A DNA stretch of 64,000 nt from Patescibacteria group bacterium (lineage in GTDB: Bacteria > Patescibacteriota > Patescibacteriia > Magasanikbacterales > GWA2-37-8), in assembly GCA_041661385.1 (NCBI GenBank), contig JBAZUP010000001.1:7382-71381 (forward strand). The letters run 5' to 3'. Every line of letters begins with the position of its first letter. Position 1 is the first letter of the stretch. Both the position numbers and the translations under genes were made by a program. A model generated the notes under the pieces. The model was given only the letters and a program-made list of their open reading frames with translations, was not told where the DNA came from and searched no databases. Shown here one piece after another: positions 2,786-53,943 of the stretch.

Positions 2786-3232
2786 ATGGCTGAGATTCTT
2801 TATTATAAAAAAGTTTCGTGTCCGGTTAGTAAAGGGCAAGTAGAAAAAATTGTAGATTTGGCCGCAAGTTTTGAGAAAAAAATTTGTGGTATAACAGAAG
2901 TATCAATCGTTTCGGAAAATATTATAAAAAAGTTAAACAAAAAATTTCGAGGAAAAGATAAAGTTACCGATGTGCTTTCTTTCTCCTTGAGAAAAGGGGG
3001 GATAGTGGCGGGCCCTTTTTTTGGCGAACTTTATATTTGTTATCCACAAATTGTAAGGCAAGCAAAAGAATTTGGTGTTTCAGTTAATGAGGAATTTTCA
3101 AGAATGTTAGTGCATGGCTTGTTGCATCTCGCGGATCATGATCATCAAAAAAAAGCTGAATCAGATAAAATGTTTAAATTACAGGAAAAAATAATTACAG
3201 TTGCAAAAAAGAATAGAGTAATTAAAATATGA
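2786..3232 (+). CDS. ybeY: rRNA maturation endoribonuclease YbeY
   Basis: 148 aa with the metal-binding motif HGLLHLADHDH (HxxxHxxxxxH) near the C-terminus. Typical size. Confidence 0.85.
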   Translation: MAEILYYKKVSCPVSKGQVEKIVDLAASFEKKICGITEVSIVSENIIKKLNKKFRGKDKVTDVLSFSLRKGGIVAGPFFGELYICYPQIVRQAKEFGVSVNEEFSRMLVHGLLHLADHDHQKKAESDKMFKLQEKIITVAKKNRVIKI

Positions 3233-7177: not shown

Positions 7178-8425
7178 TTATTTTAAAGTCGGGTAAAGTG
7201 GAAATTTTTTGGTCAGGTTTTTAACCTGATTTTTTATTTCGGCTAGTTTAGTGTCGTCTTTATGATTTAAAATTACTTCTTCAATCCAGGCAGCCACTTG
7301 CTTCATTTCAATTTCTTTCATACCTCTCGTGGTTAGGGCAGGTGTGCCTAGGCGAATGCCAGACGGATCCATAGGTGAGCGCGGATCATCAGGAATCATG
7401 TTTTTATTCACCGTGATGCCGGCTTTGTCGAGCGCAATTTGTGCTTCTTTGCCGGATAATCCTTTTGGTGTTACATCCATGAGAAGGAGGTGATTGTCGG
7501 TGCCGCCAAAACAAAGTTTATAGCCAAGTTTGTTAAATTCTGTTTCTAGCACTTTGGCATTCTTTTTAATTTGTTTTGCATATTCCTTAAATTCCGGCAG
7601 TAGTGCTTCTTTAAATGCGACCGCTTTCGCGGCAATATTATTTTCGTGTGGTCCGCCCTGCATGCCGGGGAATACCGCTTTATCAATTTGTTTAGCAAAT
7701 TTTTCTTTACACATTATCATGCCGCCGCGTGGTCCACGTAAAGTTTTGTGAGTTGTGGTGGTCACAATATCAAAAACCGGTACTGGGTTATTCATTTGTC
7801 CGCCGGCAATGAGACCGGCAATGTGAGCGATGTCCGCCATTGTTATCGCTCCGACCTCATCGGCGATAGCTTTTATTTTTTCATATTCAATTTCACGTGA
7901 ATAAGCTGAATAACCGACCAAAATTAGTTTTGGTTTGTGTTCTAGTGCCATTTGGCGCAGATTATCAAGATCAATTTTACCGCTCGCATCGGTTTTATAT
8001 CGGACAAAATTATAGATTTGCGCGGAAAAGGTCACTGGGTGCCCGTGGGTAAGGTGCCCGCCATGTGAGAGGTCCATGCCAAGCACGGTGTCCCCAGGCT
8101 TTAATATGGCTGAGTAGGCGATCATGTTGGCCGGCGCTCCGGAGAGCGGCTGAACATTTACATGTTCAGCGCCAAAAAGCATTTTGGCCCGGTCAATGGC
8201 GAGTTGCTCTACTTCATCAATAAATTCACATCCGCCATAGTAGCGTTTGCCAGGGTAGCCTTCTGAATATTTATTTGTTAATACGGAGCCGAGCGCTTCA
8301 AGTACCGCAGGGGAGACAAAATTTTCCGATGGAATCATTTCGAGGCCCTCTTCTTCGCGGTTCTGCTCGCGGCCAATGCTGGCTTTTATTTCCGGGTCAA
8401 ACTCCTTTAGCGTTTGAATGTGCAT
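7178..8425 (-). CDS. glyA: serine hydroxymethyltransferase
   Basis: 415 aa SHMT with conserved GGHLTHGHP and PLP-lysine region ([14 protein letters not shown]). Confidence 0.95.
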
Positions 8426-8426
8426 A

Positions 8427-9314
8427 TTATTTAAATATTTTCTTTAAGATTGAATTTATAAAATCAAATGATCCATCATTCAGAATAAGAGCGTCATAAT
8501 GCCGTTCAAAATGTACTATATTTTCATCGGTTACATCAACATTCAGAAAACCAATTTTTAAAAGATTATTGCATACAAATCCTTCAATCATGCCAATGTC
8601 GCCAAAATTATCACCTAGCAATATGACATTCTTCCGGTTTTTTATCGTTTCATACACTGGAAAATTTTGTAGCATGGTTTCGTCTTTGTTCACGCCGGTT
8701 ATTATTGGTTTTTTAATATCCACTGCGTTTCCGTTTTCATCCCAGACAAATTCATTGCTAATAATGTGAATATTCGAAAAAAATAATTTTTCATGTTCAA
8801 AAAACTTTCGAATTGCTTCACTGCCGAGACCACTTGCCGACATTATGACCAGGGGAATATTATTTTTATGCAAAGTTTTTAGAAATTCTGCAACGCCAGG
8901 TCGAAATTTTACGACTCCCGATGTCATGGCTTTTTCAATGTCTTTACGGTGTAGTCCACATTCACGAAGAAGTTTGAAATGAGCGGTCCACCATTCTTCC
9001 ATTATGTCTTTCTTTTTTTCTTTTGTTACAGCAGGGTCTCGTTCGATTGTTCCATAGTGCGCATAGAGGGCTTTGGCGCGAGGCGCGTAATCGGGAGTGA
9101 GATAATTGTGATCGCGAAGGATAGCGGTAATCGATGGCGTTGGTACTCCGTTTACAAAGGCGAGGGTGAGGGTGCGGTCAAAATCGGCAATAATATGAAG
9201 GTTCTTTGCTCCGCCGTTTGCAATTTCGTGTTCGATTTTTTCAAACAATACCTCGTTAGAAATTCTGATTTTGTCGGTAATCATAAGCCTCAAATAGTGG
9301 CTCCATGATATCAT
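8427..9314 (-). CDS. HAD-superfamily pyrimidine 5'-nucleotidase (UMPH-1/NT5C3-like)
   Basis: HAD motif [11 protein letters not shown]. Overall resemblance to the cytosolic pyrimidine 5'-nucleotidase family. Confidence 0.65.
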
Positions 9315-9335
9315 TTAGAAGAGTTGATTGCAAAC

Positions 9336-10964
9336 CTATTTCCAGCGCTTTACCAGGTAGGTTCTGTCCGGTTTGTAGCCTAATTTTTTATAGTAATCCT
9401 TCACGCCCACTCCTGAAATAACCGCCAGATTTTTAATTTTATTTTTTTTACAGATTTTTTCCGCTTCAATAATCAGTTTCTTGCCAAGACCTTGGTGCTG
9501 GCTTGATTGGCTGCCTTTTTTACCGATTCGAATTAACTGTCCGTAAGTATGAAGCTCGCGGATATAGGCTGGGAAAGGTGCAGTTTTATTTTTTAAGCTT
9601 ACAATTCGGAGACGACAAAAAGCAAAAACAACTTGGCGTTTTTTATCTTCAAAACTTAAAAAATATTCCGTACCGCCGGCAGTTTGGTATTTTTCTAAAA
9701 ATAATTTCGGTGTCAGGTCTTTAATCTGCGTTAAATCAACATGGCCGGCTTCACGACAACGAAGGCATCTGCAAACCAGTCCTTCGTTTTTCATTTCCTC
9801 ATGAATCACTTGGCGCAAGTTTGTTACTCGGTTACCTTCTTCAATGTGTTGACCAGGAATGTCGCGGATTAATCGTGAGATTCGCACATAGCGGGGGACT
9901 TCGCTTTTGAAAGTTTTTATAATATTTACCAAATCTTTGGTTGGATAAGCATGATACTTTCCTTGTTGAAGCCAATCATATAGTTCCGAACCTTTTACTA
10001 CAGTGCAAGGGTAAATTTTTATCATGTCAGGCCGAAGTCCGGGGTCGGAAAAAACTTCTCGCAGCATTTTTAGATCGCTTTTTGGTGTTGCACCCGGTAG
10101 TTGAGGCATTAAATGGAAATCAGTTTTAAAACCAAAATTTCTCGCGAGTTCAGTTGCCTTTTTTGCTTGTTCAATAGTATGACCGCGTTTAATTATTTTA
10201 AGTATTTTATCGTCGGTGTGTTGAACACCGATTTCAAGACGAGTGCAGCCTTGCTCGCGCATTTGCCAAAGAGTTTTTTCTGAAATACTATCCGGGCGAG
10301 TTTCAAGTGTGAGTCCAATTATTCGATGTTTGGATTTTTCGTTTATTTTTTGTTGTTTAACCAGCTCGGTTTTTATTTTTTCAAATGGAGAAGTTTCTTT
10401 TAATTTAATTTTTGTACCGTTTGCCGCCGCAAAAGATTGTAAAATAAACCAATATTGATAAGGAAGCGCATAGGCGTTCCAGGTTCCTCCTTTGACAATT
10501 AACTCTATTTTATCGGTTGGGTGGCCGTTGCGCTCAATTGATTCCAGGCGGCGTGCCATTTGTTCGTAGGGGTTAAATTTTAACGAAAGGGCGCGGCTGG
10601 CAGCTGGTTCATCGGCCAGGTAACTTTTAGGCATTCGAACGTCTAGCGGGCAATAAATGCATTCTCCGGGGCAAGGATAAGGCTTAACAAGCGACGTAAC
10701 AATGGTGACGCCGGAAAGAGTTCGAACCGAACGACGCGTTAAAAGTTTTTCCATTGCAGGGCTGGTTTTGATGCTTTTCTTTCGCAATAAGCTGTGGTAT
10801 GCTTTAAGCAAATCAGTTTTATCAGGAGTGCCTTTTGAGGTCGGAAATTGTTTTACTAAAGCTCGTTTTAACACGCTAAACTCAAGCTCATTTTTAGGGA
10901 GTTTTTTTAGAGCGGAAAATACAATTTTTTCTGCCAAATTCATAGTAAAGTTGAGTATGGACAT
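9336..10964 (-). CDS. elp3: Elp3-like radical SAM + GNAT protein (tRNA wobble-uridine carboxymethylation)
   Basis: Radical SAM cysteine motif CPGECIYCP. C-terminal GNAT acetyltransferase motif (QHQGLGKKLIEEAE). 542 aa. Start may be the M at 10943. Confidence 0.8.
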   Translation of the reverse strand: MSILNFTMNLAEKIVFSALKKLPKNELEFSVLKRALVKQFPTSKGTPDKTDLLKAYHSLLRKKSIKTSPAMEKLLTRRSVRTLSGVTIVTSLVKPYPCPGECIYCPLDVRMPKSYLADEPAASRALSLKFNPYEQMARRLESIERNGHPTDKIELIVKGGTWNAYALPYQYWFILQSFAAANGTKIKLKETSPFEKIKTELVKQQKINEKSKHRIIGLTLETRPDSISEKTLWQMREQGCTRLEIGVQHTDDKILKIIKRGHTIEQAKKATELARNFGFKTDFHLMPQLPGATPKSDLKMLREVFSDPGLRPDMIKIYPCTVVKGSELYDWLQQGKYHAYPTKDLVNIIKTFKSEVPRYVRISRLIRDIPGQHIEEGNRVTNLRQVIHEEMKNEGLVCRCLRCREAGHVDLTQIKDLTPKLFLEKYQTAGGTEYFLSFEDKKRQVVFAFCRLRIVSLKNKTAPFPAYIRELHTYGQLIRIGKKGSQSSQHQGLGKKLIIEAEKICKKNKIKNLAVISGVGVKDYYKKLGYKPDRTYLVKRWK

Positions 10965-11649
10965 TATACAGAAGACCCGCGACGATTACAATAAAATTGC
11001 CTCTTTTTTTGCAGAAACCCGCAGTCATCCGGGTGAGCTGGTACAGTTTAAACCTTTTATCGCGGACGGTCAACAGATTCTGGATTGGGGTTGCGGGAAT
11101 GGCCGGCTGCTTTACATGCTTGAAAAATTTAAAATTAATTATTTTGGCCTTGACCAAAGCAAGGGCCTTTTAAATCAAGCTGAAGCGGAACACCTCAAAC
11201 TGATAAAAAATAAAACTGCCGCATTTTTTTGCACTGCGCATCGTGAAAAAAAATTCCCGCCGGAAACTTTTGATCTAATTTTTTTAATTGCGTCATTTCA
11301 TCATTTGCCGGACAAAAAAAGCCGGCTCAAATTATTAAAAAAATTATATCAGGAATGCAAGACAGGCGGTAAAATGGTCATGACCAATTGGAATTTGGAT
11401 AGCGTCTGGGCAAAAAATAAATTAAAAATTGACTGGGAAAAAACTGGTGACGATGATTTTCTTATTCCCTGGAAAGACAAGAGCGGCAAGGTTTTAGTTA
11501 AACGGTATTATCATAATTTTCAAAGAGATGAAATTAAGGAACTCGCTGTTAAAGCTGGCTGGAAAGTGTTAAAATTATATTATTCAGATGGTCCGGGGGA
11601 GGCAAATAAAAAAACCGGTAAAAATTTGGTGTTAATCGCTGAGAAGTAA
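10957..11649 (+). CDS. class I SAM-dependent methyltransferase (Trm9/Methyltransf_11-like)
   Basis: SAM motif ILDWGCGNGRL. The ORF track's start at 10702 overlaps elp3 on the opposite strand, so the first internal ATG at 10957 (MDIIQK) is taken. Confidence 0.65.
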   Translation: MDIIQKTRDDYNKIASFFAETRSHPGELVQFKPFIADGQQILDWGCGNGRLLYMLEKFKINYFGLDQSKGLLNQAEAEHLKLIKNKTAAFFCTAHREKKFPPETFDLIFLIASFHHLPDKKSRLKLLKKLYQECKTGGKMVMTNWNLDSVWAKNKLKIDWEKTGDDDFLIPWKDKSGKVLVKRYYHNFQRDEIKELAVKAGWKVLKLYYSDGPGEANKKTGKNLVLIAEK

Positions 11650-13116: not shown

Positions 13117-13225
13117 ATAACGTAAGAATCGGCCAGAAAGGATAATTTTGCATTTTGGCCGGTCCTTAAGTTAATAGGGCCAAAACCTACCCCAGTGGCG
13201 GGGTAAACCAGGGAGGTAGTACGTA

Positions 13226-13618
13226 ATGTGCGAAAATTCTGTTGAGGCAACTCTTCACCGTACGCTGCTGAGCAGGCACACCGCTCAGTCGAGACTCTCG
13301 CATTACGAGGGTTCACCCGAAGAGCTCAGGGAGCTCGCGCGGGTCGCCTGGCTGTTCGCCGGGTCAAGGCCGGGCAAGTTGCCCGACACGGTCGTTCTTT
13401 CCGGCGGCATTCCGCCGACCGGTTTCTTCAGTAAGGATGGTGCGACTCGCACCACCCACGGGATGCTGAAGCCCGAGGCGGTACGCGTGGACATCATCGT
13501 GCTCATCACGAAGCGGGGCGCCTGCAAGGGCGCTGCCGAGATCCAGGTCATCGATTTCCAGGCCTGGGATTCCGAGGTCTGGGAGACGCAGAAGGCACGC
13601 AGTGCCGTAGCCGCCTAA
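13226..13618 (+). CDS. hypothetical protein encoded in GC-rich island 1 (foreign-looking)
   Basis: ~60% GC with strong GC3 periodicity in this frame only. Strong SD GGGAGG 9 nt upstream of the ATG. No family recognised. Confidence 0.45.
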   Translation: MCENSVEATLHRTLLSRHTAQSRLSHYEGSPEELRELARVAWLFAGSRPGKLPDTVVLSGGIPPTGFFSKDGATRTTHGMLKPEAVRVDIIVLITKRGACKGAAEIQVIDFQAWDSEVWETQKARSAVAA

Positions 13619-13790
13619 GGGCGGCAAAAAAAGGTCTGGCGAAGCCTTGTCCGGTTCTTAATAAAAGAACTGACCAAATTCGCCGCATCATTGGCTACCG
13701 ATATTATTATCGATATCCATCGTGCAAACAAGGTTTCTAAATGGTGACGGTTTGCTTTTTTTTTGCTATAATAGGCGTATTAGAAACTCT

Positions 13791-15723: not shown

Positions 15724-15749
15724 AAAACAATCCAATTTGGATTGTTTTG

Positions 15750-15823
15750 TGCGCGCTGGGGGATTCGAACCCTCGACCCCCTCGGTGTAAACGAGGTGCT
15801 CTAACCAACTGAGCTAAGCGCGC
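15750..15823 (-). tRNA. tRNA-Val (anticodon TAC)
   Basis: Reverse complement folds as a cloverleaf. Acceptor stem GCGCGCT/AGCGCGC. Anticodon stem CCTCG/CGAGG with loop TTTACAC. TTCGAAT T-loop. No encoded CCA. Confidence 0.85.
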
Positions 15824-17090: not shown

Positions 17091-17717
17091 AATAGCGCGG
17101 CCTCAGCCGCGCTTTTTTTGTTTTTATTTTATAATAAATATCGCCTTGTCGGGCGGATGTTCGCTACCCCATTTGTGCAAACAAACGGGGTAGCACCCCA
17201 AAATTGCCGAGCTAGCTGTTCGGCTCCGCAACTCACATCAGCTCAACGAGCTGTGGCGCAGAACTCGTCGCTTGACACTCCTCAAACAGCTGCACCACCC
17301 ACGCTCGTTTTCACTGTGTCGAGTTGTGTCACCTCACATGCGCTCGGAACCGAACGTTGGCTAATTACCAACTGGTGACCGAGCCTATACGTAGTGAGTT
17401 GCAAACTACCCGAGGAAATTAGATTTTTTCAATGTGATTATGCTGATTTGAAAAAATCTAATTTCGCCGGCCATTTATTCTCGTTCCACAAAGGCTCGGA
17501 GGTGAATTGTTGGTAATTGGCCAACAACGGGGGTTTGGGGAAGTCGATATCCCGAGTTCTCGCGAACGAGTGGTTATATCGACGATCTCCCCAAAACCTT
17601 TGGTTACTTTCAGTTATGAAAGTAACATTGAGAATAATTTAAGAGAAAATAGAGTAAACATCGCGATAGCGATAAGATGTATTTAAATATAAATAGCGAG
17701 GCTGAGGCCGCGCTATT
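17091..17717 (+). repeat. intergenic modular repeat, copy A (~627 bp, flanked by 22-bp terminal inverted repeats)
   Basis: Left end aatagcgcggcctcagccgcgc, right end gcgaggctgaggccgcgctatt (reverse complement, 1 mismatch). Shares modules M1-M4 with copies B and C. Confidence 0.6.
17095..17119 (+). terminator. terminator hairpin gcgcgg-cctcag-ccgcgc + T7; also the left terminal inverted repeat of repeat copy A
   Basis: Perfect 6-bp GC stem followed by TTTTTTT directly after the permease stop. Confidence 0.6.
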
Positions 17718-17738: not shown

Positions 17739-19505
17739 TTATGGTGTGACGATTGCTCCGTTCTTAAATCCTTTATCTGTATTCGGAAGAATGTTTGAAG
17801 TATTATTCAGTTTAATATTAAATTCTTTACCAACCTCATCATCAATTCCGTAATAGGTTGTTGCCGAAATTAAGTTTAAAATATATCCGGCCTGTTCAGC
17901 TTTGGGGGTCACAGACACTTCAAAATAGAATCCGCTTTCACTGTCCGCAGGTACAGCGCTGTCATAAGTCCAGCTCATAGTTCGGTTTGCCTGGTTAAAA
18001 ATCAATTCAGGCCCGATTGTTACGCTTTGTTTCCCGGTAAAGGTGACTCCGGGAGCTAGGGTAAAAATTAAGCGATTGCCACGCAGGGAATTTATTTTGT
18101 CAAAAAGGGTAGTGAATATCCAATATTTGGTTGTTTTGCCAACCTGTGGGGGTAGAAGTCCGCGGCCTAACTGGTCACCTTCATCGGTATAATATCTCGC
18201 CACACTGCGTAGAAATACTTCGGCGGAAAGGGAAATGCTCGTTGCGGATCCGTCGGTTGTAAAAGCTTGCCCCGGCATATCGGCTGCTTCGGCTTCAAAT
18301 ACAGGTTTGATTGTTAGGGTCTTTATTCCGGATGCTTTTTTGTCGAAGTTTGGAAGCAAATATATTTTTATATCAAATTGATCGCCCGAATTTGGTTTGC
18401 CATCGGACAGGGTTGTGCGAGTTTTTTCATTAATTATCAGGTTGTTGCCATCTTTGGTTAGGTGGTTTTCGGTGGCAGTAAGAGCGAGGTCGACTACGCC
18501 AGGTGTGGTTTGGATAATAATCTTTTGGTTTTTTAATGAAAACTGGCTATCATTTTTCCACATTATTCTCACTGGTAAAATTGAAAGCGGTTCCGCATAG
18601 GGTGGAGCTTCTTGCAGTCTGGTCGAAAGAGTAATTCGCGGACTAAACAATTCTAGCCGGTTTTTTTGAGTGCTTTGAATAAAAGTTTTTCCATTAATAA
18701 TCACTCTGGTGTCTGCAGTAAATAGATAATTTCCTCCTTTGGTCGGAGTAAAGAATGTTTCTGAGTAGGAAGTGGTGGCATTTGGAGGTAGTTCAAATAC
18801 CTTATCTATCATTTTTCCGTTAATGTTTAATCGGATATCAGACAGGGTAATATTTCCGGTATTTATTAAATCTACTGAATAGGGTATTTTTTGATTAGAA
18901 AAAGTTTTTGATGGTGAGTTGAGGGTCGCGTGCAAAACGCTGTCTGTAAGAGTGAGTAAATAAATACCAGAAGATTGATCAATATTTGTATTTCCTTCGG
19001 GCTTAAATGAAAGAGTTGCAATTAATTTTTCTGTTTCATTAATATTAGACCAAAGCGTTCCATAGATATCGGCAGAACCGTGGCTTCCGGGCGGAAGGGA
19101 GCCGATTGTAATGGTGTGGTTTTTGAGATCAAGATTAGAAGTGAGTTTTTCGTCAACAATAAACCCCTGAGGTAATCGCAAGGCAAGAATCGCGTTATTA
19201 AGATTTTGTTTGCTGTTGTTTGTATAGTCGATAGAAAGATGTACCGGACTGCCGCTTTTTATTCGTTCTGATCCAAGTGATATAGAAATAGCTACTTCAC
19301 TTCCAATACTGGGTTTCCATGTGAAAAAGAAAGCGCTGCTGCCGAACATTAAAATGGCAAATCCAAGTAGAAACATGTCAAACACAAATAGTTGTTTGGC
19401 GTGTTCATAAACACCGTGATACTTGCGGTGGTAATGGTTATGAAAGAAATTGTAGATAGCTTTAATCATTTGATTGATATTATACCTTACTCCTCGTGCA
19501 AACAA
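17739..19505 (-). CDS. membrane-anchored large extracellular protein (hypothetical, beta-rich)
   Basis: N-terminal TM (LLGFAILMFGSSAFFFTW) then ~520 aa of S/T/N-rich domain. Same operon as the HTH gene. Confidence 0.5.
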   Translation of the reverse strand: MFARGVRYNINQMIKAIYNFFHNHYHRKYHGVYEHAKQLFVFDMFLLGFAILMFGSSAFFFTWKPSIGSEVAISISLGSERIKSGSPVHLSIDYTNNSKQNLNNAILALRLPQGFIVDEKLTSNLDLKNHTITIGSLPPGSHGSADIYGTLWSNINETEKLIATLSFKPEGNTNIDQSSGIYLLTLTDSVLHATLNSPSKTFSNQKIPYSVDLINTGNITLSDIRLNINGKMIDKVFELPPNATTSYSETFFTPTKGGNYLFTADTRVIINGKTFIQSTQKNRLELFSPRITLSTRLQEAPPYAEPLSILPVRIMWKNDSQFSLKNQKIIIQTTPGVVDLALTATENHLTKDGNNLIINEKTRTTLSDGKPNSGDQFDIKIYLLPNFDKKASGIKTLTIKPVFEAEAADMPGQAFTTDGSATSISLSAEVFLRSVARYYTDEGDQLGRGLLPPQVGKTTKYWIFTTLFDKINSLRGNRLIFTLAPGVTFTGKQSVTIGPELIFNQANRTMSWTYDSAVPADSESGFYFEVSVTPKAEQAGYILNLISATTYYGIDDEVGKEFNIKLNNTSNILPNTDKGFKNGAIVTP

Positions 19506-19514
19506 AAACTCCCC

Positions 19515-19895
19515 TTATTGAAGTGGGGGAGTTGGTTTGTTGTTTAAAACTGGGGGAACAGCCGGTTTGTTTGTTTCACCGGTTTCAGTCGGTAATTTTG
19601 GTTTTATAGACTTTGGGTTGGGGGAGTAGAGTGGGTTCTTTATTTTCCACTTATCCACATATTGTCCAATACCTTTTTTAAGCAATTTGTTTTTTACGGT
19701 GGTATGTCGTTGTGACCATTTAACTAAGCTTTCAAAATTAAGTTTATATCGTCCGGAAACTACCACATAAGTTACTTCCTGAGATCGTATTGCACGACGG
19801 ATTGTTTGCGAATTAACACCAAAAAGCCGGGCTGCCTCGGATATAGATACCCGAATTAGCTCTTTCTGCTCTTTGTTATTTATGTCTTCGGCCAT
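19515..19895 (-). CDS. helix-turn-helix DNA-binding protein (excisionase/MerR-like HTH) with Pro-rich tail
   Basis: HTH segment ISEAARLFGVNSQTIRRAI. Start taken at the ATG at 19895 (MAEDINN); the track's start at 19940 would overlap the operator. Confidence 0.55.
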   Translation of the reverse strand: MAEDINNKEQKELIRVSISEAARLFGVNSQTIRRAIRSQEVTYVVVSGRYKLNFESLVKWSQRHTTVKNKLLKKGIGQYVDKWKIKNPLYSPNPKSIKPKLPTETGETNKPAVPPVLNNKPTPPLQ

Positions 19896-19901
19896 AGTAT
19901 T

Positions 19902-19930
19902 TGTACACGGTTGTATACGATAGTGTATAC
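19902..19930. promoter_or_regulatory. operator-like palindrome array: tgtacacggttgtatacgatagtgtataca
   Basis: Three TGTAYACR half-site palindromes directly upstream of the HTH gene start. Confidence 0.45.
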
Positions 19931-19988
19931 ATCCTAGCATAAAATCGATTATTTGTCAAGGGGTAAGGCATTAAAAATATTTTATGTT

Positions 19989-20097: not shown

Positions 20098-20470
20098 ATA
20101 TGCGCGGCCTCAGCCGCGCTATTTTTTTATATCGCCCTGTCGGGCGGATGTTCGCTACCCCATTTGTGCAAACAAACGGGGTAGCACCCCAAAATTGCCT
20201 CGCAGTTGTTTCACTCGACAAATGTCACGTCGAAATCAAAACGATTTTTTCAAAGGTGCATAGTCGCATTGAAAAAATCTAATTTCGCCGGCCATTTGCT
20301 CTCGTTCCACAAAGGCTCGGGGGGACATTTGTTGGCCAACCAGTGGGGGTTTGGGGGCCGCCAGCTGTTTGAGGAGCTCGCGCGACGAGTTCTGCCGGCC
20401 CCCAGAACCTTTTGATTACTTTTCAGTTATGAAAAGTGATGCCGCCGGCAGGGCTAAGGAAATAAGTATT
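20098..20470 (+). repeat. intergenic modular repeat, copy B
   Basis: Starts with the same gcgcggcctcagccgcgc hairpin + T-run. ~95% identity to copy A over module M1. Shares M2-M4 with compensatory stem differences. Confidence 0.6.
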
Positions 20471-22724: not shown

Positions 22725-22954
22725 TTTATTTATTCAGGTATCCTCTCCCTCCCTGCAACAAAAAGATTTGTTACAGAGAGGGGAGGGAATACGTTATAAA
22801 CCCGAATCAGTTATAAATGTCGAGAGGTGAATAGTCACCTTGGCTGGTTCATTAGTAGTGGATATCGAAGGTCGCAAGGTTTTCGAGTCCGCTCCGCCCT
22901 AAATCGCGATTCCGTCCGGAAAAGCGGTTTGGAGTGATAATATTTATATTTATT

Positions 22955-25900
22955 ATGCAGAATGTATTAAAATTAGGCCGTAAAGTCCTAACCGTTAGTA
23001 CCGTCTTCAGTACCATTTTGTGGTCTGTAGGTGTCTCAGCTTTGGTACCAGCAATGGCCCAAGCCGAAACCTGCCCAACTTTCAAGTCGGGTGACCTCAT
23101 TAAAGTAACTGGCCGACCAGCCATTTACGCTGTTGATTCTAACGGCAAAGTTCTTTATTTCCCAAGTGGAGATGAATTCAAGAGTTGGAATTCCAATGAT
23201 TCCTACGGTGGTTATACCGCCATTTCACAAGCATGTTACGACGCGCTTCCAGTGCCAAGTATGGCCCCAATGGGTGTCAACTTCCGCCCTGGTTCATATG
23301 TTGTCAAGCGCATTTCCTCAGATCAATTATATGTAATAGAACCAAACAACACTTTGGCCAAAGTTACCTCTGAGGTAGCCAAAGCATTGTATGGAACTAC
23401 CTACAAAGCAAGAACAGTAGCCGATGTATTCTGGAACAGTTACACCAACCGTGCAGCTGATCTTACAGAAGCAAAAGCTCACCCAGGCATGCTCATCAGC
23501 AATGGTGGCAAAACCTATTTTGTGAACACCGACGGCTCACTTTCACAAGTTTCAGCCACTGGTTTCACAGCCAACCGCTTCAAACAAGCCTTCGTTCGCC
23601 CGGTCGCCAGCATCGCTGGTTTCACCATGGGTGCCGAAATTGCTGCTGAAGACGGAAAGACTTCTGACCGAACTCAAACTGGCGGCGTAGTTGCAACCAT
23701 TCCTGGTGGCACCGTTTCCGGCGGTTCTGTTTCAGTTGGTCTCGCAATCGATAACCCAGCAGCCGGTTTATTGGCTTCTGGTACCGCTTTCAATAAAGTA
23801 TTGAAAGTTACTTTGACTGCCGGTTCCGCTGATGTTGCTGTTACTGGTTTAACCCTCAAGAAGAGCGGTTTTGCTGCTAACTCAGCTATCAACGGCGCTG
23901 ATGTTGTAGATGCTTCTGGAGTTCGCCACGGCAACGTGTCCGGATCCATTGACACCGACAACAACCTCACCCTATTGTTCTCTGGCTCTCCAATTGTTGT
24001 AAAAGCCAATTCCAGCCAGACTGTAACAGTTCGCGTGAATATTGCCGCATCTGGTACCACCGGTACCATGCAGTTCAGCTTAGCTGGTTCAGGTTCTGTC
24101 ACCACCAACGGTGGTTCAGTATCCGGCAGCTTCCCTGTCACTGGTAACGTTTTCACCTTACAAGATGGTTCAAACGCTATTGCCGCAGTAGCATTGAATG
24201 AACAACCAGTTAACGCCTCTGGCGCTACCTTGAACGTTGATTCAAACAATGAACAAGAAATTGCGAAGTTCTCAATCAATGAAACATCCAGCCGTGAAAA
24301 TGTTCAATTAAGCAGCCTTACCCTTTACAACAATGGTACTTCTGCTGACACTGACATCCAAGATGTTCAATTGGTTGGACAAGACGGCACCGTTCTTGCC
24401 ACAGCTCAACAGCTCAACAAGACCGTTGTCTTCAGCCTCGTCCCTGCTTATAACATCGACAAAGGCGTCACCAAGAACTTTACCGTTCGCGCTAAAATCG
24501 TAAATGGTGCAGCTCGTACCATTCAATTCGTAGTTTACAATGACTATGATGCGATTTTGGTCGGTGGTAACACTGGTGCAAACATCTTACCAACAACCAC
24601 CTCTGGTGGAACTGCTGGTACAGGTACAACTTTCCCAGTAGGTAACAAGACCAGTTATAACCTTGTAACTATTGGTTCAGGTTCTATCAGCTTTAACAAG
24701 GACACCTCTTCACCTTCATCCGCTATTTCCCCAGGAACTAACGGTGTTGTAATCGCGAAATTCTTCGCGAAGCCAACTGGTGAAAACATGGAACTCCGCC
24801 AAATTTCCTTGAACATCGTCACTTCGACCCCGTCATTATTGACTGGTTCAGTAGTTGTCAAGGTTAATGGCGCTTCCGTATGGAGTGGTTCGCCAGCATT
24901 ATTTGCCGGTGCCGCATTAACAGAAACCCTTTCTTCCTATCCTGTCTTGACTGCTGGTCAGAACAGCTACATTACGGTTGAAAGCAATGTTATGAGTGGT
25001 GCTGCTAGTGGCGAAACAGTTTACGCCGCTATGGACCTCGTCCAAGTTAAACGCTTAGTAACCAACGACATTGTTGACCCAGGCACAAACAGCTCACAAG
25101 GCAACACCTTGGCTGTGCAAGCTGCCGCACTGAAGGTAACCACCATGGCTACCCCAGTTGCGCAGAGTGTAGTTGCCGGTTCAGCCGGTGTAGTACTTGC
25201 CAACATTGAATTAAATGCTGGTACAGTATCTTCTGGTGAAGACGTCCGAGTTTCCAAAATTGTCATTTCTGACGTTTGGTCAGGAACTTTGACTGATATT
25301 GGAAACCTCGCATTGTATGATGCTAATGGTAATCAGATTGTGACTACCGCAAGCACCGCTACTAATGCCGCTTCATCTTCGTTCAACCTTGCCAACCCAA
25401 TCACTGTGCCAAAAGCCGGTGCTGTTACTCTCACTCTAAAAGGTGATGTATTAACTGGTACCACTTCAACCCACAAATTCTCCGTTGCTAGCATTGCGGA
25501 CGTTACTGCTACTGGCATTTCAACTGGTAACTCTTTGAGTTCAACCATTACGGGTGGCGTTGGTTCTGGTCAGTTATTGTCCGTTACTGGCTCTGGCACA
25601 TTGTCATTGTCCACAGTTTCTGGTGGTTCAGCCTCACCTTCGAACGACCAAACAGTCCTCGTTGGTCAGACTGCCGTTCCAGTATTCGCAGTTAAATTAA
25701 CTGCACAAAATGAACCAATTAAGATCACCAGCTTCAAGATTACCGCTACTGGTACTATTGGTACATCTAACGACATTGTGAACTTGAAACTTTATCGTGA
25801 CAACGATACAGCTCCGTTCGCATCTGCTGGTCAAATGAACTACGTCAGTGCAAACAACTACACATACACTTGGACTGCTACCGATAACCTGCTCCCAGCA

Positions 25901-26623
25901 GCGGTACAACCAGGCACCCCAGTAACCATCTACGTCAAAGCTGACGTAGGTGCACAGGGAAATGTAGTTATCGGTGACAGCTTCCGCTTCGCATTCGCCA
26001 CCAACACCGACATCGGTGCCAAGGGCGCTTCCAGCGGTCAGACTTTGGTCAATGCTTCTATAGTTGGTACTCCAGCTGTAACTGCATTCACTTCCATTGT
26101 TCCGTTCAGCGTTTCACTCGCTGCACAGGCTCCAACTGGCAACCAGACTCAATCAATTGTGGCTGGCACTCAGTTAGCAATTGTTAAAATCACCAACAAT
26201 GGTGGTTCAAAGATTACTGTTACCGGTGTTAAATTCACTGATAATGGTACTCACTCTGGTTCAACCACAACTTACAAGTTGTATTACTCAGATTTGAACT
26301 CTGTTAATTTCGTTGGTAACACAGCTTCTAGTACTTGGACTAGCGTAGATTTCTCGAATCTTACTGCTTCAAGCACAGGCACCGGTCCCTTCACCATTGA
26401 TGGTGGAGCCTACCGCTACGTCACTGTTGCTATCAATACACTTGGTTCCGCTGTTTCTGGAGATAACTTCCAATTGTCAATTGCATCACTTGGTGATGTG
26501 AAATACTCAGTTGTTGGTTCAGATCTCGGTTATAGCGTAGATGCCAGTGGTAATTTGGCAACTGTTGCAACCGGTCTCAAAGCTGATGGAAAACCATCCT
26601 TAGCCACTCTTTCCAAGCAATAA
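22955..26623 (+). CDS. giant secreted surface protein (S-layer/adhesin-like, T/S/G/V-rich beta repeats)
   Basis: Sec signal peptide MQNVLKLGRKVLTVSTVFSTILWSVGVSALVPAMA|QA. ~1220 aa rich in Thr/Ser/Gly/Val/Ala with repeated Ig-like segments. First ATG at 22955; the track's GTG is at 22934. Confidence 0.6.
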   Translation: MQNVLKLGRKVLTVSTVFSTILWSVGVSALVPAMAQAETCPTFKSGDLIKVTGRPAIYAVDSNGKVLYFPSGDEFKSWNSNDSYGGYTAISQACYDALPVPSMAPMGVNFRPGSYVVKRISSDQLYVIEPNNTLAKVTSEVAKALYGTTYKARTVADVFWNSYTNRAADLTEAKAHPGMLISNGGKTYFVNTDGSLSQVSATGFTANRFKQAFVRPVASIAGFTMGAEIAAEDGKTSDRTQTGGVVATIPGGTVSGGSVSVGLAIDNPAAGLLASGTAFNKVLKVTLTAGSADVAVTGLTLKKSGFAANSAINGADVVDASGVRHGNVSGSIDTDNNLTLLFSGSPIVVKANSSQTVTVRVNIAASGTTGTMQFSLAGSGSVTTNGGSVSGSFPVTGNVFTLQDGSNAIAAVALNEQPVNASGATLNVDSNNEQEIAKFSINETSSRENVQLSSLTLYNNGTSADTDIQDVQLVGQDGTVLATAQQLNKTVVFSLVPAYNIDKGVTKNFTVRAKIVNGAARTIQFVVYNDYDAILVGGNTGANILPTTTSGGTAGTGTTFPVGNKTSYNLVTIGSGSISFNKDTSSPSSAISPGTNGVVIAKFFAKPTGENMELRQISLNIVTSTPSLLTGSVVVKVNGASVWSGSPALFAGAALTETLSSYPVLTAGQNSYITVESNVMSGAASGETVYAAMDLVQVKRLVTNDIVDPGTNSSQGNTLAVQAAALKVTTMATPVAQSVVAGSAGVVLANIELNAGTVSSGEDVRVSKIVISDVWSGTLTDIGNLALYDANGNQIVTTASTATNAASSSFNLANPITVPKAGAVTLTLKGDVLTGTTSTHKFSVASIADVTATGISTGNSLSSTITGGVGSGQLLSVTGSGTLSLSTVSGGSASPSNDQTVLVGQTAVPVFAVKLTAQNEPIKITSFKITATGTIGTSNDIVNLKLYRDNDTAPFASAGQMNYVSANNYTYTWTATDNLLPAAVQPGTPVTIYVKADVGAQGNVVIGDSFRFAFATNTDIGAKGASSGQTLVNASIVGTPAVTAFTSIVPFSVSLAAQAPTGNQTQSIVAGTQLAIVKITNNGGSKITVTGVKFTDNGTHSGSTTTYKLYYSDLNSVNFVGNTASSTWTSVDFSNLTASSTGTGPFTIDGGAYRYVTVAINTLGSAVSGDNFQLSIASLGDVKYSVVGSDLGYSVDASGNLATVATGLKADGKPSLATLSKQ

Positions 26624-26734: not shown

Positions 26735-27190
26735 CCACCCATTTTGTGCGCCCAAAACGGGTGGATCCCAAAAGGCGCCGAGCTGATACTTAGCTCGGCA
26801 AATGCCTCGGCGAAATCAAAACGATTTTTTCAAAAGTGCAAGGTCGCATTGAAAAAATCTAATTTCGTCGGGCAGTTTGCGGCTCGCTTCATATAGGCTC
26901 GGTCACGAATTGTTACCAATTGGCGAGTCCGAGTCTTTTGTGAAGCGATGCCACTTGTCTGGGCGAGGTGAACGTGGGTGGCGCAGTTGTTTGAGCCCAC
27001 AGGCGAGTTCTGCGCCACAGTGAGACGAGCCCTAGAAAGTGGCGAAGTGGAACAACCGACTCGGAGCCTTTTTGGTTTCTTTTTGGGCGAACAAAAAGAA
27101 ACCGCTCGCCGCGCAGGCGTGGCAGCCAGTCCGGCGAGGACTGTTGTTTGAGTAACAGCCAGATTGGTGACTATCTTTGACAAAGACCCG
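26735..27190 (+). repeat. intergenic modular repeat, copy C
   Basis: Shares the loop-ttgtgc hairpin, module M2 (gattttttcaa...ttgaaaaaatc palindrome, ~90% identical to copy B) and a cagaactcg/ctcaaacagctg segment in inverted orientation. Confidence 0.55.
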
Positions 27191-52407: not shown

Positions 52408-53943
52408 TTATTTTGCAAGGCGTTGATCGCCAATCTCTCTTTCTTTACGTCGCCGTTTGTAGTCTTCGGTATTCACCGTTTCCCACGCCCAATCGCGCAG
52501 TATGACCACTTCCTCCGGCGGCACTATTGTATTTTTCATTACAGCATTTTTCCAATTCATCGTGTCCGGATCGAAATCCGGCGATAAATGGCCTCCTTTT
52601 ATTGCAATGCTGTAAAGTTTGCTCCCAGGGAACGGGATGGGAATGAAGAATGTTACGTGTCTCGCGCCAGCGTCGATGAGTTTTTTTGCGAGCTCAACAG
52701 TCTCATTCATTTCAGCTTTCGTTTCATCGGGGAACCCAATCATCATATTGACGGGGCAGTTGATCCCGATTTTCACGGCTTCGCGCACTAGTTCAAGCAC
52801 GTTGAGCTTGTCATGACGAAGTTTGGACGAGGCGTATTTGTCCAGAATGCGTTGATTTCCAGATTCAACCGGAAAGACGATTTCATTAAATCCGGCCGCA
52901 CTCAGGATTTCCAAATATTCCACGTCTGGCTTTAGTCGCCCAGTTGAGGTCGGGATACCAAAGTGGACGAGGTTTACGCCGTTTATACCGCTAATCTTCA
53001 GTCCGAGACCCGCGAGGCGATGAAAAAGGTCTTTGATTCGAGCTTTTTTGGCGAGGAGACTATCATCCTCAATGTAGAGGTGGGTTACTCCAAGCGCCAA
53101 CAGTATCTTTAGTTCCTCCATAACGCGGTCGATGGATTTGAAACGCAACGAACCAGTACCACCAGTGAGGGAGTCCGTCTCACGCTCTTCACTGATATGA
53201 CAGTAAGCGCAATGAAATGGACAGCCACGGGAGGTCATGATTGAGGCGTAACGCTCTCGTTGATCGGTCATGGGGACGCTGCTGTGGGGGCTGTTGATCT
53301 CGTCATACTTGGCAAATGGCAGCAGATCCCATGCAGGAATCGGCAGCTCATCAAGATTACTCGAGATCAAATTCGGCGTCACCGGACGAGTTATGACGGA
53401 TCCCTTGTGAAGATACTTAATTCCGTCAACTTTGTCGAACGAGGAATTTTGCTGCCAGGCGCGGACGAGATTAACGATAATTTTTTCACCCTCGGTAAGG
53501 ACTACAACGTCCACCAAGCGGCTTGCAAAGAATCGTTCTGACAGCGCGCGGGCATTAACACCACCTGCGATAACCAAGGTATTTGGGTTTACTTCCTTAG
53601 CAATTTTGGCCACCTCCAGAGCCATATTGGTCTGGGGCGTAAAGTTGTTGCTGATGCCCACTATATCGTAGCTACCTTTGGTAAAATATTCCCGCAAGCG
53701 ATCCGCGGTCATACCAATACGCGTAAGGCCGTTTGGCAGAAGAACACGGTTGTGGAATGTATTACTAAGGTAGTCTTCATTTGTTCCAACTGAAGCGTCC
53801 AACAAATCAACTTCAAATCCTGCTCGACGAAGGGCGCCGGCAAGGTACAATGGGCCGAGCGAGCCATCCGGTCGTGGCATTTCAATTGCCATTAGTTGAT
53901 TGGGTGGATAGACCAAAAGAATCTTCGGTTGAAGCTTTGACAT
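52408..53943 (-). CDS. B12-binding (class B) radical SAM enzyme
   Basis: N-terminal cobalamin-binding Rossmann-like domain, then radical SAM core with CPFHCAYCH (CxxxCxxC). Confidence 0.85.
   Translation of the reverse strand: MSKLQPKILLVYPPNQLMAIEMPRPDGSLGPLYLAGALRRAGFEVDLLDASVGTNEDYLSNTFHNRVLLPNGLTRIGMTADRLREYFTKGSYDIVGISNNFTPQTNMALEVAKIAKEVNPNTLVIAGGVNARALSERFFASRLVDVVVLTEGEKIIVNLVRAWQQNSSFDKVDGIKYLHKGSVITRPVTPNLISSNLDELPIPAWDLLPFAKYDEINSPHSSVPMTDQRERYASIMTSRGCPFHCAYCHISEERETDSLTGGTGSLRFKSIDRVMEELKILLALGVTHLYIEDDSLLAKKARIKDLFHRLAGLGLKISGINGVNLVHFGIPTSTGRLKPDVEYLEILSAAGFNEIVFPVESGNQRILDKYASSKLRHDKLNVLELVREAVKIGINCPVNMMIGFPDETKAEMNETVELAKKLIDAGARHVTFFIPIPFPGSKLYSIAIKGGHLSPDFDPDTMNWKNAVMKNTIVPPEEVVILRDWAWETVNTEDYKRRRKEREIGDQRLAK

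Follow-up and report, generated by a model that had tools for sequence, protein, structure and literature searches.

The modified wobble uridine mcm5U34 has been regarded as a eukaryotic modification that only some archaea share. A locus in a Patescibacteria group bacterium (contig JBAZUP010000001.1) raises the question of whether a bacterium might make it too. The locus encodes an Elp3 protein, a methyltransferase transcribed divergently from it and a neighboring HAD-family protein. The window analysed here, that is the whole stretch of DNA, is 64,000 nucleotides in length. An earlier note made from its sequence had read the three genes as an Elp3/Trm9/UMPH-1 trio and suggested that the Elp3/methyltransferase pair could be a complete eukaryotic-style wobble-uridine pathway in a bacterium.

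A 2020 review of Elp3 placed bacterial Elp3 in Dehalococcoides only and stated that xcm5U derivatives had not been directly demonstrated in bacteria. No description of a bacterial Elp3–Trm9 pair was found in the searchable literature; a bacterial Trm9 may have been mentioned in print. Nothing was found linking Elp3 or Elongator with Patescibacteria or the CPR.

Gene boundaries at the locus

The three ORFs described in the earlier note were all found where it had placed them and contained the protein motifs it had quoted. The longest Elp3 ORF spans 9336-10964 on the minus strand. Public gene calls give a 535 aa protein from the ATG at 10943, and an extension to the ATG at 10964 is possible. The longest HAD ORF is 8427-9314 (minus strand), for which public gene calls give 285 aa with the start at 9284. 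The methyltransferase ORF as listed (10702-11649, plus strand) was rejected as over-extended; it would overlap Elp3 by 260 bp. Its true start is the ATG at 10957, giving a 230 aa protein beginning MDIIQKTRDDYNKIA, a start shared by every homologue and by an NCBI protein of identical sequence. Given this start and that of Elp3 at 10943, the start codons lie 13 bp apart on opposite strands, so the methyltransferase is indeed divergent and directly beside Elp3. Each promoter must therefore overlap the 5' end of the other gene. The candidate Elp3 promoter, which is a pattern match only, sits within the first 12 methyltransferase codons. Elsewhere in the window a GC-rich island at 13.2-13.65 kb had no match in Rfam, Pfam, PHROGs, plasmids or phages.

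Table 1. Features of the locus, in positions of the window.
Feature	Position	Strand	Description
Serine hydroxymethyltransferase (SHMT) gene	7178..8425	-	Pfam SHMT E 5e-161
cN-III / UMPH-1-type HAD 5'-nucleotidase gene	8427..9284	-	285 aa; adjoins the pair, outside the conserved module
Elp3 gene	9336..10943	-	Stand-alone radical-SAM + GNAT; predicted tRNA U34 carboxymethyl (cm5U) synthase; 535 aa
Head-to-head spacer between Elp3 and methyltransferase start codons	10944..10956	.	13 bp, read from sequence
Methyltransferase gene	10957..11649	+	230 aa; class I SAM methyltransferase of the Trm9 family, predicted carboxyl methyl-esterase (cm5U34 -> mcm5U34)
Candidate sigma-70-like promoter for Elp3	10963..10991	-	TTGTAA-17-TATAAT; consensus scan, 10/12 matches

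Elp3 and the divergent methyltransferase

The window Elp3 matched NCBIfam TIGR01211 at 523.5 bits (cut-off 350; model positions 14-521 of 522). Its Pfam architecture was Radical_SAM, Radical_SAM_C and GNAT. Residue conservation was assessed across 24 Patescibacteria Elp3 sequences using a list of tested residues mapped from PMC6367351. The [4Fe-4S] ligands C91-x3-C95-x2-C98 were invariant, and their motif CPGECIYC aligns with the cluster loop of MinElp3 and DmcElp3. The residues reported for the acetyl-CoA pocket and hydrolysis are MinElp3 K150, K266, Q461 (Dmc E386) and Y517 (PMC6367351); the corresponding K145, K273, E463 and Y517 were invariant. The same was true of H465, the GNAT QxxGxG motif (Q482-H483-x-G485-x-G487) and the zinc cysteines C391/C393/C396 (CRCLRC) of the interdomain linker. 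By sequence the window Elp3 is intact, with all Fe-S, zinc, acetyl-CoA and catalytic residues kept. The earlier note had allowed that conserved lysines or cysteines might be missing, and this is ruled out by their invariance among the 24 homologues.

The three zinc-binding cysteines are conserved in bacterial and archaeal Elp3 and missing from eukaryotic Elp3. Among solved relatives the window protein scored 394 bits against MinElp3 (6iaz) and 379 bits against DmcElp3 (5l7j), compared to approximately 290 bits against eukaryotic Elp3. On the basis of the cysteines and these scores it is classed as a stand-alone archaeal/bacterial Elp3 and not a eukaryotic one. No other Elongator subunit was evident, and the description of the pathway as eukaryotic-style is not supported. 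The rarity of Elp3 in bacteria, also put forward in the earlier note, applies to bacteria at large but not to Patescibacteria, in which there are hundreds of Elp3 clusters.

Identity of the methyltransferase to Trm9 is only ~21-25%. Searched by itself, the window protein matched Yarrowia Trm9 best among solved structures (5cm2_Z, E 8.3e-11, residues 20-210). When the family profile was compared to all PDB sequences 5cm2_Z was again the top match, over the full length (84.8 bits, E 5.4e-23); the runner-up scored 62.4 bits, a margin of 22 bits for Trm9. For the Dehalococcoides homologue alone Trm9 ranked only 7th among solved structures. The AF2 model of the window protein (pLDDT 93.8) also had 5cm2_Z as its top Foldseek match. 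In that search many class I methyltransferases differed from Trm9 by roughly an order of magnitude or less, and as it does not discriminate among them it is not the main evidence for Trm9.

Alanine mutants of ScTrm9 are inactive at R29, D72, H116, W145, W168, R241, Y243 and N271. In the family alignment the equivalents R22, D66, H116, W145, W172, R183 and Y185 were present in 27/27 sequences and N223 in 26/27. Y18 was also conserved in 27/27. The ScTrm9 positions that tolerate alanine (H24, K31, Q149, and D270) were variable or held a different residue in the bacterial family. Pfam and NCBIfam returned only generic methyltransferase domains, with all specific families below cut-off. CmoM was among these (NF008264, 15.8 bits; cut-off 366), and the protein is not a member of that family. 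Pfam found the methyltransferase domain alone in the 230 aa protein, with no RRM or AlkB domain as in an ALKBH8-type fusion. The membership of the Trm9/ALKBH8 family that the earlier note had asked to be checked is supported by Trm9, which was the best match of the profile and eight of whose eight essential residues are conserved. On sequence grounds the divergent methyltransferase is classed as a bacterial Trm9-family protein.

Trm112 is the obligate activator of Trm9 in eukaryotes and Haloferax. A regular-expression search for the Trm112 zinc knuckle and GIP motif in ORFs of at least 40 aa found nothing in the 64 kb window and 83 loci. Clustering of ORFs detected no conserved small protein in the ~8 kb flanks of 80 genome loci, and no candidate was present among the small intergenic ORFs of the window. 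Overall no Trm112 was found within the 64 kb window or the flanks of ~170 related loci. One 54 aa zinc ribbon located two genes from the pair (L085/L093) was considered and rejected. It was LysW-like (E 8e-7), matched Trm112p below the cut-off (E 0.044) and occurred in only three loci, the window not being one of them. Of the six hydrophobic residues that Trm112 buries in Trm9, three (V59, F78, A110) are replaced by polar ones in the bacterial family. The window methyltransferase may act independently of Trm112.

Conservation of the pair and its neighbors

A divergent Elp3 gene was immediately upstream in 78/78 methyltransferase-seeded species genomes with upstream DNA. Conversely, all metagenome loci that were seeded with Elp3 and had 700 bp or more of upstream sequence (70/70) carried a divergent methyltransferase upstream. 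Across these loci the methyltransferase was as little as 31% identical and Elp3 as little as 42%. The start-to-start distance in related loci had a median of 5 bp and was mostly 0-16 bp. Pair-bearing loci spanned several Patescibacteria lineages and the same arrangement was seen in five further distant representatives. The total of 148/148 does not count independent events, since the loci are related by descent and were recovered with peptide patterns of Patescibacteria type. Wherever a related locus had sufficient DNA, Elp3 and the methyltransferase were adjacent, and recurrence of the pair is far from chance. No additional conserved gene accompanied the pair when the flanks of 80 genome loci were clustered by ORF.

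The head-to-head pair was also present in Dehalococcoides mccartyi and a relative. Like the window protein, D. mccartyi Elp3 (PDB 5L7J/5L7L/6IA6), which serves as the reference for bacterial Elp3, is a bacterial stand-alone Elp3, the one scoring 379 bits above. Its gene is head-to-head, at 43 bp, with that of a 224 aa protein homologous to the window methyltransferase (hhalign probability 99.5%, E 5e-23). DmcElp3 lacks the basic N-terminal extension of ~70 residues that is present in the window Elp3 and in archaeal MinElp3. The remaining neighboring genes of the D. mccartyi locus are unrelated to those of the window.

SHMT was located 1-4 kb from Elp3 in 63 of ~80 genome loci and 62/80 metagenome loci. 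Its products are MnmEG substrates, and it was considered as a functional partner. It was absent beside the pair in Dehalococcoides and in Peribacteria-type loci and was therefore treated as lineage synteny.

The HAD protein matched Pfam PF05822 (UMPH-1) at E 7.9e-56 (189.8 bits, cut-off 23.7; model positions 2-245 of 246). Its best solved relatives were human and mouse cytosolic 5'-nucleotidase III (human cN-IIIB 7zee, E 6.5e-41; cN-IIIA 2bdu, E 4.7e-39). Motif I (DxDxT) reads DFDRT and aligns with DFDMT of human cN-IIIB. Against NCBIfam TIGR01544 (HAD-SF-IE) it scored 180.9 bits, below the trusted cut-off of 256.95. The UMPH-1-like 5'-nucleotidase of the earlier note was thus correctly named, and the protein is a genuine but divergent cN-III/UMPH-1 family member. 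The gene follows Elp3 at 51 bp and is read in the same direction. It was found beside the pair in only 3/80 genome loci and 7/80 metagenome loci (~7%), and was absent beside the pair in Dehalococcoides. Elsewhere the slot was empty (12 loci) or held a ThiE-like gene or a MutT-like NUDIX gene, the latter in 19 of ~80 loci. Two distant Trm9-like proteins were fused to a NUDIX domain. As the slot is variable and HAD is in so few loci, a trio is not supported, and the cN-III-type nucleotidase beside the pair is probably a separate gene of nucleotide salvage or catabolism.

A predicted route to mcm5U34

Trm9-Trm112 converts the cm5U made by Elp3 to mcm5U in yeast and Haloferax. In Haloferax volcanii mcm5U depends on both Trm9 and Trm112, and in Sulfolobus solfataricus the Elp3 and Trm9 genes are clustered. 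Like the methyltransferase of the Trm9-Trm112 complex (S. cerevisiae / Y. lipolytica; PDB 5CM2), the bacterial protein is a class I SAM enzyme, and the two are similar in size. The bacterial protein shares with yeast Trm9 the eight residues needed for methylation of cm5U-tRNA and is paired with an Elp3 predicted to supply cm5U. Unlike in yeast, the upstream enzyme is a lone Elp3 and not the six-subunit Elongator, and no Trm112 gene was found nearby. The bacterial protein also differs from ALKBH8 in having no AlkB or RRM domain. The archaeal systems are similar in their stand-alone Elp3, zinc cysteines, basic N-terminal extension and clustered genes; they differ from the pair in its bacterial host (Patescibacteria) and in its strictly head-to-head genes a few bp apart.

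Among bacterial pathways MnmE-MnmG / MnmC (cmnm5U, mnm5U) also targets C5 of U34 in tRNAs reading NNA/NNG, and the decoding role is presumably shared. The enzymes are unrelated to the pair, the chemistry of MnmEG being that of a GTPase with FAD, methylene-THF and glycine. Neither MnmE nor MnmG was found within the 64 kb window. CmoM (cmo5U -> mcmo5U in E. coli) is likewise a bacterial class I methyltransferase which esterifies a U34 side-chain carboxylate, but that side chain is an oxyacetate from the CmoA/CmoB pathway.

The two genes probably form a wobble-uridine module in which Elp3 produces cm5U34 for the Trm9 homologue to turn into mcm5U34. The conversion of cm5U to mcm5U is the best reading because Elp3 is intact, the methyltransferase belongs to the Trm9 family with 8/8 residues conserved, and the linkage is strict. 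To this extent the wobble-uridine pathway suggested for this bacterium is supported, without the eukaryotic style. The chemistry, tRNA substrates and final product of the pair are inferred. Elp3 would bind tRNA, possibly via its lysine/arginine-rich N-terminal extension, and would cleave SAM at the [4Fe-4S] cluster to yield a 5'-deoxyadenosyl radical. The GNAT domain would take an acetyl unit from acetyl-CoA, whose attachment to C5 of U34 would give cm5U. The 230 aa Trm9 homologue would then convert the cm5 carboxylate to its methyl ester with SAM as donor. The result would be mcm5U34, or mcm5s2U should a 2-thiolase act too. Overlapping promoters would tie the expression of the two genes together.

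Three other explanations were weighed. The methyltransferase could be a generic class I enzyme whose substrate is a small molecule, another RNA or a protein, and which shares no more than a conserved position with Elp3. The generic domain matches and the closeness of many class I enzymes to Trm9 in Foldseek are consistent with this. It is nevertheless very improbable, as the Trm9-specific residues outside the SAM core (R22, H116, W145, W172, R183-Y-Y185, N223) are invariant apart from the single N223 exception given above, the alignment to the runner-up 3sm3 differs at the HH and RYYH stretches, and linkage to Elp3 is found in both Patescibacteria and Dehalococcoidia, with every other neighbor exchanged. 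Just as improbable is a three-gene unit in which the UMPH-1-type nucleotidase aids Elp3 and Trm9, for instance by clearing modified pyrimidine nucleotides that tRNA turnover sets free. The position of HAD directly downstream of Elp3, the frequent filling of its slot by NUDIX, another nucleotide-hydrolysing enzyme, and the NUDIX fusions all point that way. Against it are the few loci with HAD, the variable slot, the absence in Dehalococcoides and the linkage of NUDIX to the ThiE-like gene, already known as a separate association.

The pair might instead modify U34 with an end product other than mcm5U, if cm5U were mainly amidated to ncm5U or the ester were an intermediate to a further bacterial derivative. 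Mutation of trm9 in yeast and Haloferax leads to no build-up of cm5U, which is converted to other species, and the 2020 Elp3 review reports no bacterial nucleoside data. The strictly retained and intact Trm9 active site argues for the methyl ester, and no additional conserved gene accompanies the pair; this alternative is unlikely, if slightly less so than the other two. With mcm5U34 as the preferred product, some further conversion, e.g., to ncm5U, could still occur.

The Elp3–Trm9 pair is most likely a bacterial addition to an already known pathway. More tentatively, and with rather more doubt than confidence, Patescibacteria and Dehalococcoidia might make mcm5U34 by a lone Elp3 and a Trm112-free Trm9 in place of MnmE/MnmG. 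If so, the NUDIX/cN-III neighbors and fusions would hint at clean-up of modified nucleotides, in organisms living on salvaged nucleotides. The pair predicts mcm5U34 in bacteria, including the culturable D. mccartyi. As a two-protein system it would offer a simple route to reconstituting the whole cm5-to-mcm5 pathway and a natural test of Trm9 function without Trm112. It would also lengthen the list of traits in which translation in the candidate phyla radiation is archaeal-like.

Gene layout and linkage of the pair

The three ORFs listed in the earlier note were confirmed, with corrected starts for the nucleotidase (HAD), Elp3 and the methyltransferase. The window belongs to a candidate-phyla-radiation (Patescibacteria) genome, and its Elp3 and methyltransferase each have an identical NCBI protein from a 'Patescibacteria group bacterium' MAG. 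A methyltransferase ORF from 10702 was rejected as too long, since every homologue starts at the ATG in the table, and so does the identical database protein. With the corrected starts, 13 bp separate the start codon of Elp3 from that of the methyltransferase on the other strand, so each promoter must sit within the other gene. A candidate sigma-70-like Elp3 promoter (TTGTAA-17-TATAAT, 10/12 matches, a pattern match only) was located within methyltransferase codons 3-12 (region 10944-10991). Start-to-start spacing in related loci had a median of 5 bp and was mostly 0-16 bp.

Features of the window
Feature	Position	Strand	Length	Remark
SHMT (serine hydroxymethyltransferase)	7178-8425	-		
HAD	8427-9284	-	285 aa	start 9284 in public gene calls
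Elp3	9336-10943	-	535 aa	start 10943 in public gene calls
Methyltransferase	10957-11649	+	230 aa	ATG 10957 (MDIIQKTRDDYNKIA...), shared by every homologue and by the identical database protein
GC-rich island	13200-13650		~450 bp	between GT4 glycosyltransferase and EamA-like gene
130-aa ORF	13226-13618		130 aa	inside GC-rich island
tRNA-Val(TAC)	15749-15823	-		near repeat-flanked segment
Intergenic repeats	17138-17502, 20129-20323, 26737-26903		55-141 nt	60-99% identical, partly inverted
Orphan ORF	17739-19505	-	588 aa	in repeat-flanked segment
HTH_17/excisionase-like ORF	19515-19940	-	141 aa	in repeat-flanked segment
Polysaccharide/O-antigen-like cluster	20800-64000			long, same-strand
1229-aa protein	22934-26623		1229 aa	no Pfam match; in polysaccharide cluster
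B12-binding radical-SAM enzyme	52408-53943			opposite strand to polysaccharide cluster

When one genome per species (GTDB r232) was scanned with the methyltransferase profile, 124 relatives turned up; 80 of them were retained. The closest relatives were Magasanikbacteria, and all with a credible title were Patescibacteria (Magasanik-, Komeili-, Parcu- and Peribacteria). By tblastn, 78 of the 80 genome loci have Elp3 directly upstream of the methyltransferase on the other strand; in the remaining two the methyltransferase is at a contig end. Of the Elp3-seeded metagenome loci, 70 extend 700 bp or more upstream of Elp3, and in all 70 the methyltransferase lies there in divergent orientation. Identity across linked loci went down to 31% for the methyltransferase and 42% for Elp3. 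An exhaustive HMMER search gave 574 clusters at 50% identity (E <= 1e-30), and five additional distant representatives taken from it were also head-to-head with Elp3. The proposed pairing of the two genes holds up. Retrieval of the loci relied on Patescibacteria-type peptide patterns, and the loci share descent; their counts gauge persistence through deep divergence, not independent origins.

GTDB species-representative MAGs titled 'uncultured Gammaproteobacteria bacterium' (L005, L007, L009 and approximately 45 other loci) carry a locus that is clearly of Patescibacteria, with FtsZ-NrdR-SHMT-Elp3 synteny and an SHMT 80-90% identical to that of Magasanikbacteria. Such records look like bulk submissions with wrong labels.

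Family assignment of the methyltransferase and Elp3

Pfam and NCBIfam gave only generic class I domains for the methyltransferase (METHYLTRANSFERASE). Three results pointed to Trm9 in particular. Searched singly, the sequence had Yarrowia Trm9 (5cm2_Z, E 8.3e-11) as its best solved relative, with an alignment spanning the C-terminal half; other solved matches end at the Rossmann core. A profile built from 27 members of the family (A1) matched Trm9 over the full length (E 5.4e-23, 84.8 bits). The runner-up was 3sm3 (62.4 bits), in which the stretches aligned to the Trm9 HH and RYYH motifs differ. The AlphaFold model had a pLDDT of 93.8 and its top Foldseek match was also 5cm2_Z (E 6.5e-14, TM 0.78 on target); with other class I enzymes close behind, this match is supportive only.

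The strongest evidence for Trm9 was conservation at the level of residues. Létoquart et al. (PMC4678810) mutated 15 ScTrm9 residues, and eight alanine mutants were without function (R29, D72, H116, W145, W168, R241, Y243 and N271). The window equivalents are, in order, R22, D66, H116, W145, W172, R183, Y185 and N223. The first seven are conserved in 27/27 family members and N223 in 26/27. The position of Trm9 Y18, the proposed binder of the cm5 carboxylate, is also conserved in 27/27. Among the positions at which ScTrm9 tolerates alanine, H24 and K31 vary freely in the bacterial family, Q149 is replaced by an invariant serine and D270 by R or K. Conservation and variation in the family follow the functional map of Trm9. 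By sequence, the methyltransferase is a member of the Trm9 family, as suspected.

Elp3 scored 523.5 bits against NCBIfam TIGR01211 (cut-off 350) and contains radical-SAM, Radical_SAM_C and GNAT domains. Residues tested in PMC6367351 were mapped via HMMER alignments and checked in 24 Patescibacteria Elp3 sequences. Invariant were the Fe-S cysteines C91/C95/C98, K145 (MinElp3 K150), K273 (MinElp3 K266), E463 (DmcElp3 E386/MinElp3 Q461), H465, Y517, the GNAT motif Q482-H-x-G-x-G487 and the zinc cysteines C391/C393/C396. The conserved lysines and cysteines on which the earlier note had made its reading depend were thus all kept. Its 'eukaryotic' label did not stand. The closest solved structures were archaeal MinElp3 (394 bits) and bacterial DmcElp3 (379 bits), compared to approximately 290 bits for yeast, mouse and human Elp3, and the three zinc cysteines are characteristic of the enzyme in archaea and bacteria, not in eukaryotes. 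An N-terminal extension of approximately 70 residues precedes the aligned core, as in MinElp3 and unlike DmcElp3. Read by eye, it is apparently lysine/arginine-rich.

Nucleotidase and surrounding genes

HAD, the UMPH-1-like nucleotidase of the earlier note, matched Pfam UMPH-1 with an E value of 7.9e-56. Its best solved relatives were human cN-IIIB (7-methylguanosine phosphate-specific 5'-nucleotidase, 7zee, E 6.5e-41) and cN-IIIA. It was under the NCBIfam HAD-IE cut-off (180.9 vs 256.95 bits). HAD is a real cN-III/UMPH-1 family member. The suggested trio of Elp3, Trm9 and nucleotidase was unsupported because HAD is rare beside the pair (3/80 genome loci, 7/80 metagenome loci) and what lies between SHMT and Elp3 varies from locus to locus. 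Directly beside Elp3 were SHMT itself with no insert (12 loci), a ThiE-like gene (12), a MutT-like NUDIX gene (11), HAD (3) or various others. MutT-like NUDIX genes were near the pair in 19 of approximately 80 genome loci overall. Two distant Trm9-like proteins, P0264 and P0298 (L085:4447-5580 and L086:4162-5304), carry a NUDIX domain at the C-terminus, its Nudix box intact, and each is head-to-head with Elp3. Based on these fusions and the NUDIX and HAD neighbours, there is a small chance that the pair is linked to nucleotide hydrolases.

SHMT was 1-4 kb from Elp3 in approximately 78% of Patescibacteria loci but not in Dehalococcoides. FolD adjoins SHMT in Komeili/Parcubacteria-type loci, in the order FolD-SHMT-Elp3-methyltransferase. 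No functional reason for the SHMT-Elp3 association was evident.

The GC-rich island has a GC content of 60-67% compared to approximately 40% for the genome, and its predicted RNA fold had a z of -4.3 on the plus strand. Searches against Rfam (even at E<=1), Pfam, PHROGs, plasmids and phages gave no match, and none of the 80 related genome loci contains the island. It is possibly an insertion specific to the strain or a structured RNA not yet described. Two copies of the repeat family bracket a 2.4-kb segment with two ORFs, which may be a small mobile element. The polysaccharide cluster includes a Wzy_C/TPR protein, a nucleotidyltransferase, several epimerases/dehydratases, a TPP-dependent enzyme, two DegT-type aminotransferases, an acyltransferase, a flippase and GT4 glycosyltransferases.

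Trm112, Dehalococcoides and predicted bacterial mcm5U

No Trm112-like ORF was found in the 64 kb window or the flanks of related loci. Zinc ribbons considered as Trm112 in three loci (L085:6638-6802, L093:7033-7323, L050:~3002-3169), and absent from the window, were LysW-like and were rejected. The LysW-like protein is small, ends in ...EIVDEGK, is encoded two genes away from the pair and adjoins a PLP-dependent (PALP) enzyme. Trm112 buries six hydrophobic residues of YlTrm9; in the bacterial family three of these positions are polar (V59 to N/R/Y/Q/K, F78 to N/H/K/E, A110 to K) and the other three are hydrophobic or proline. The polar contact positions are weakly suggestive of a methyltransferase independent of Trm112.

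The sequence of DmcElp3, the reference Elp3 for bacteria, was rebuilt from a PDB alignment and its genomic context examined. In D. mccartyi CP019867.1 (L090:5283-7380) Elp3 is head-to-head, at 43 bp, with a 224-aa class I methyltransferase, and likewise on a related 1.0-Mb contig (L091:5252-7386). This methyltransferase aligned to A1 by hhalign (probability 99.5%, E 5e-23, 208 columns) and retains FHHL, VWN, VPW, RYY and RN; searched alone, it had Trm9 only 7th among solved structures. Every other neighbour differs between the Patescibacteria and Dehalococcoides loci. QueH, a tRNA-modification gene, is approximately 2 kb from the Dehalococcoides pair. The module is not limited to Patescibacteria.

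Eukaryotes and Haloferax have an established route to mcm5U through Elp3 and then Trm9, and clustering of the two genes has been noted in Sulfolobus. Among bacteria, D. mccartyi has a known Elp3. A 2020 review placed bacterial Elp3 in the D. mccartyi clade only, with direct evidence for xcm5U in bacteria lacking. A 2026 paper speaks of 'numerous bacteria'. According to a 2017 review of Trm112, homologues of the methyltransferases that depend on it could not be detected in bacteria. Full-text literature searches for Elp3 or Elongator together with Patescibacteria or CPR gave nothing relevant, and in the portion of the Dehalococcoides and Trm9 literature covered, Dehalococcoides was mentioned only in a reference. 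Automated annotation of these MAGs already labels Elp3, and now and then it names the neighbour 'TRM9' or 'tRNA methyltransferase, catalyzes esterification of modified uridine nucleotides'. As far as was searched, the pair is an undescribed bacterial case of a known system, with no new mechanism. The pair would act in two steps, cm5U first and mcm5U second, and this model is probably correct. The prediction is sharp and testable: mcm5U in bacteria, possibly via a Trm112-independent Trm9, with D. mccartyi as a culturable organism in which to test it.
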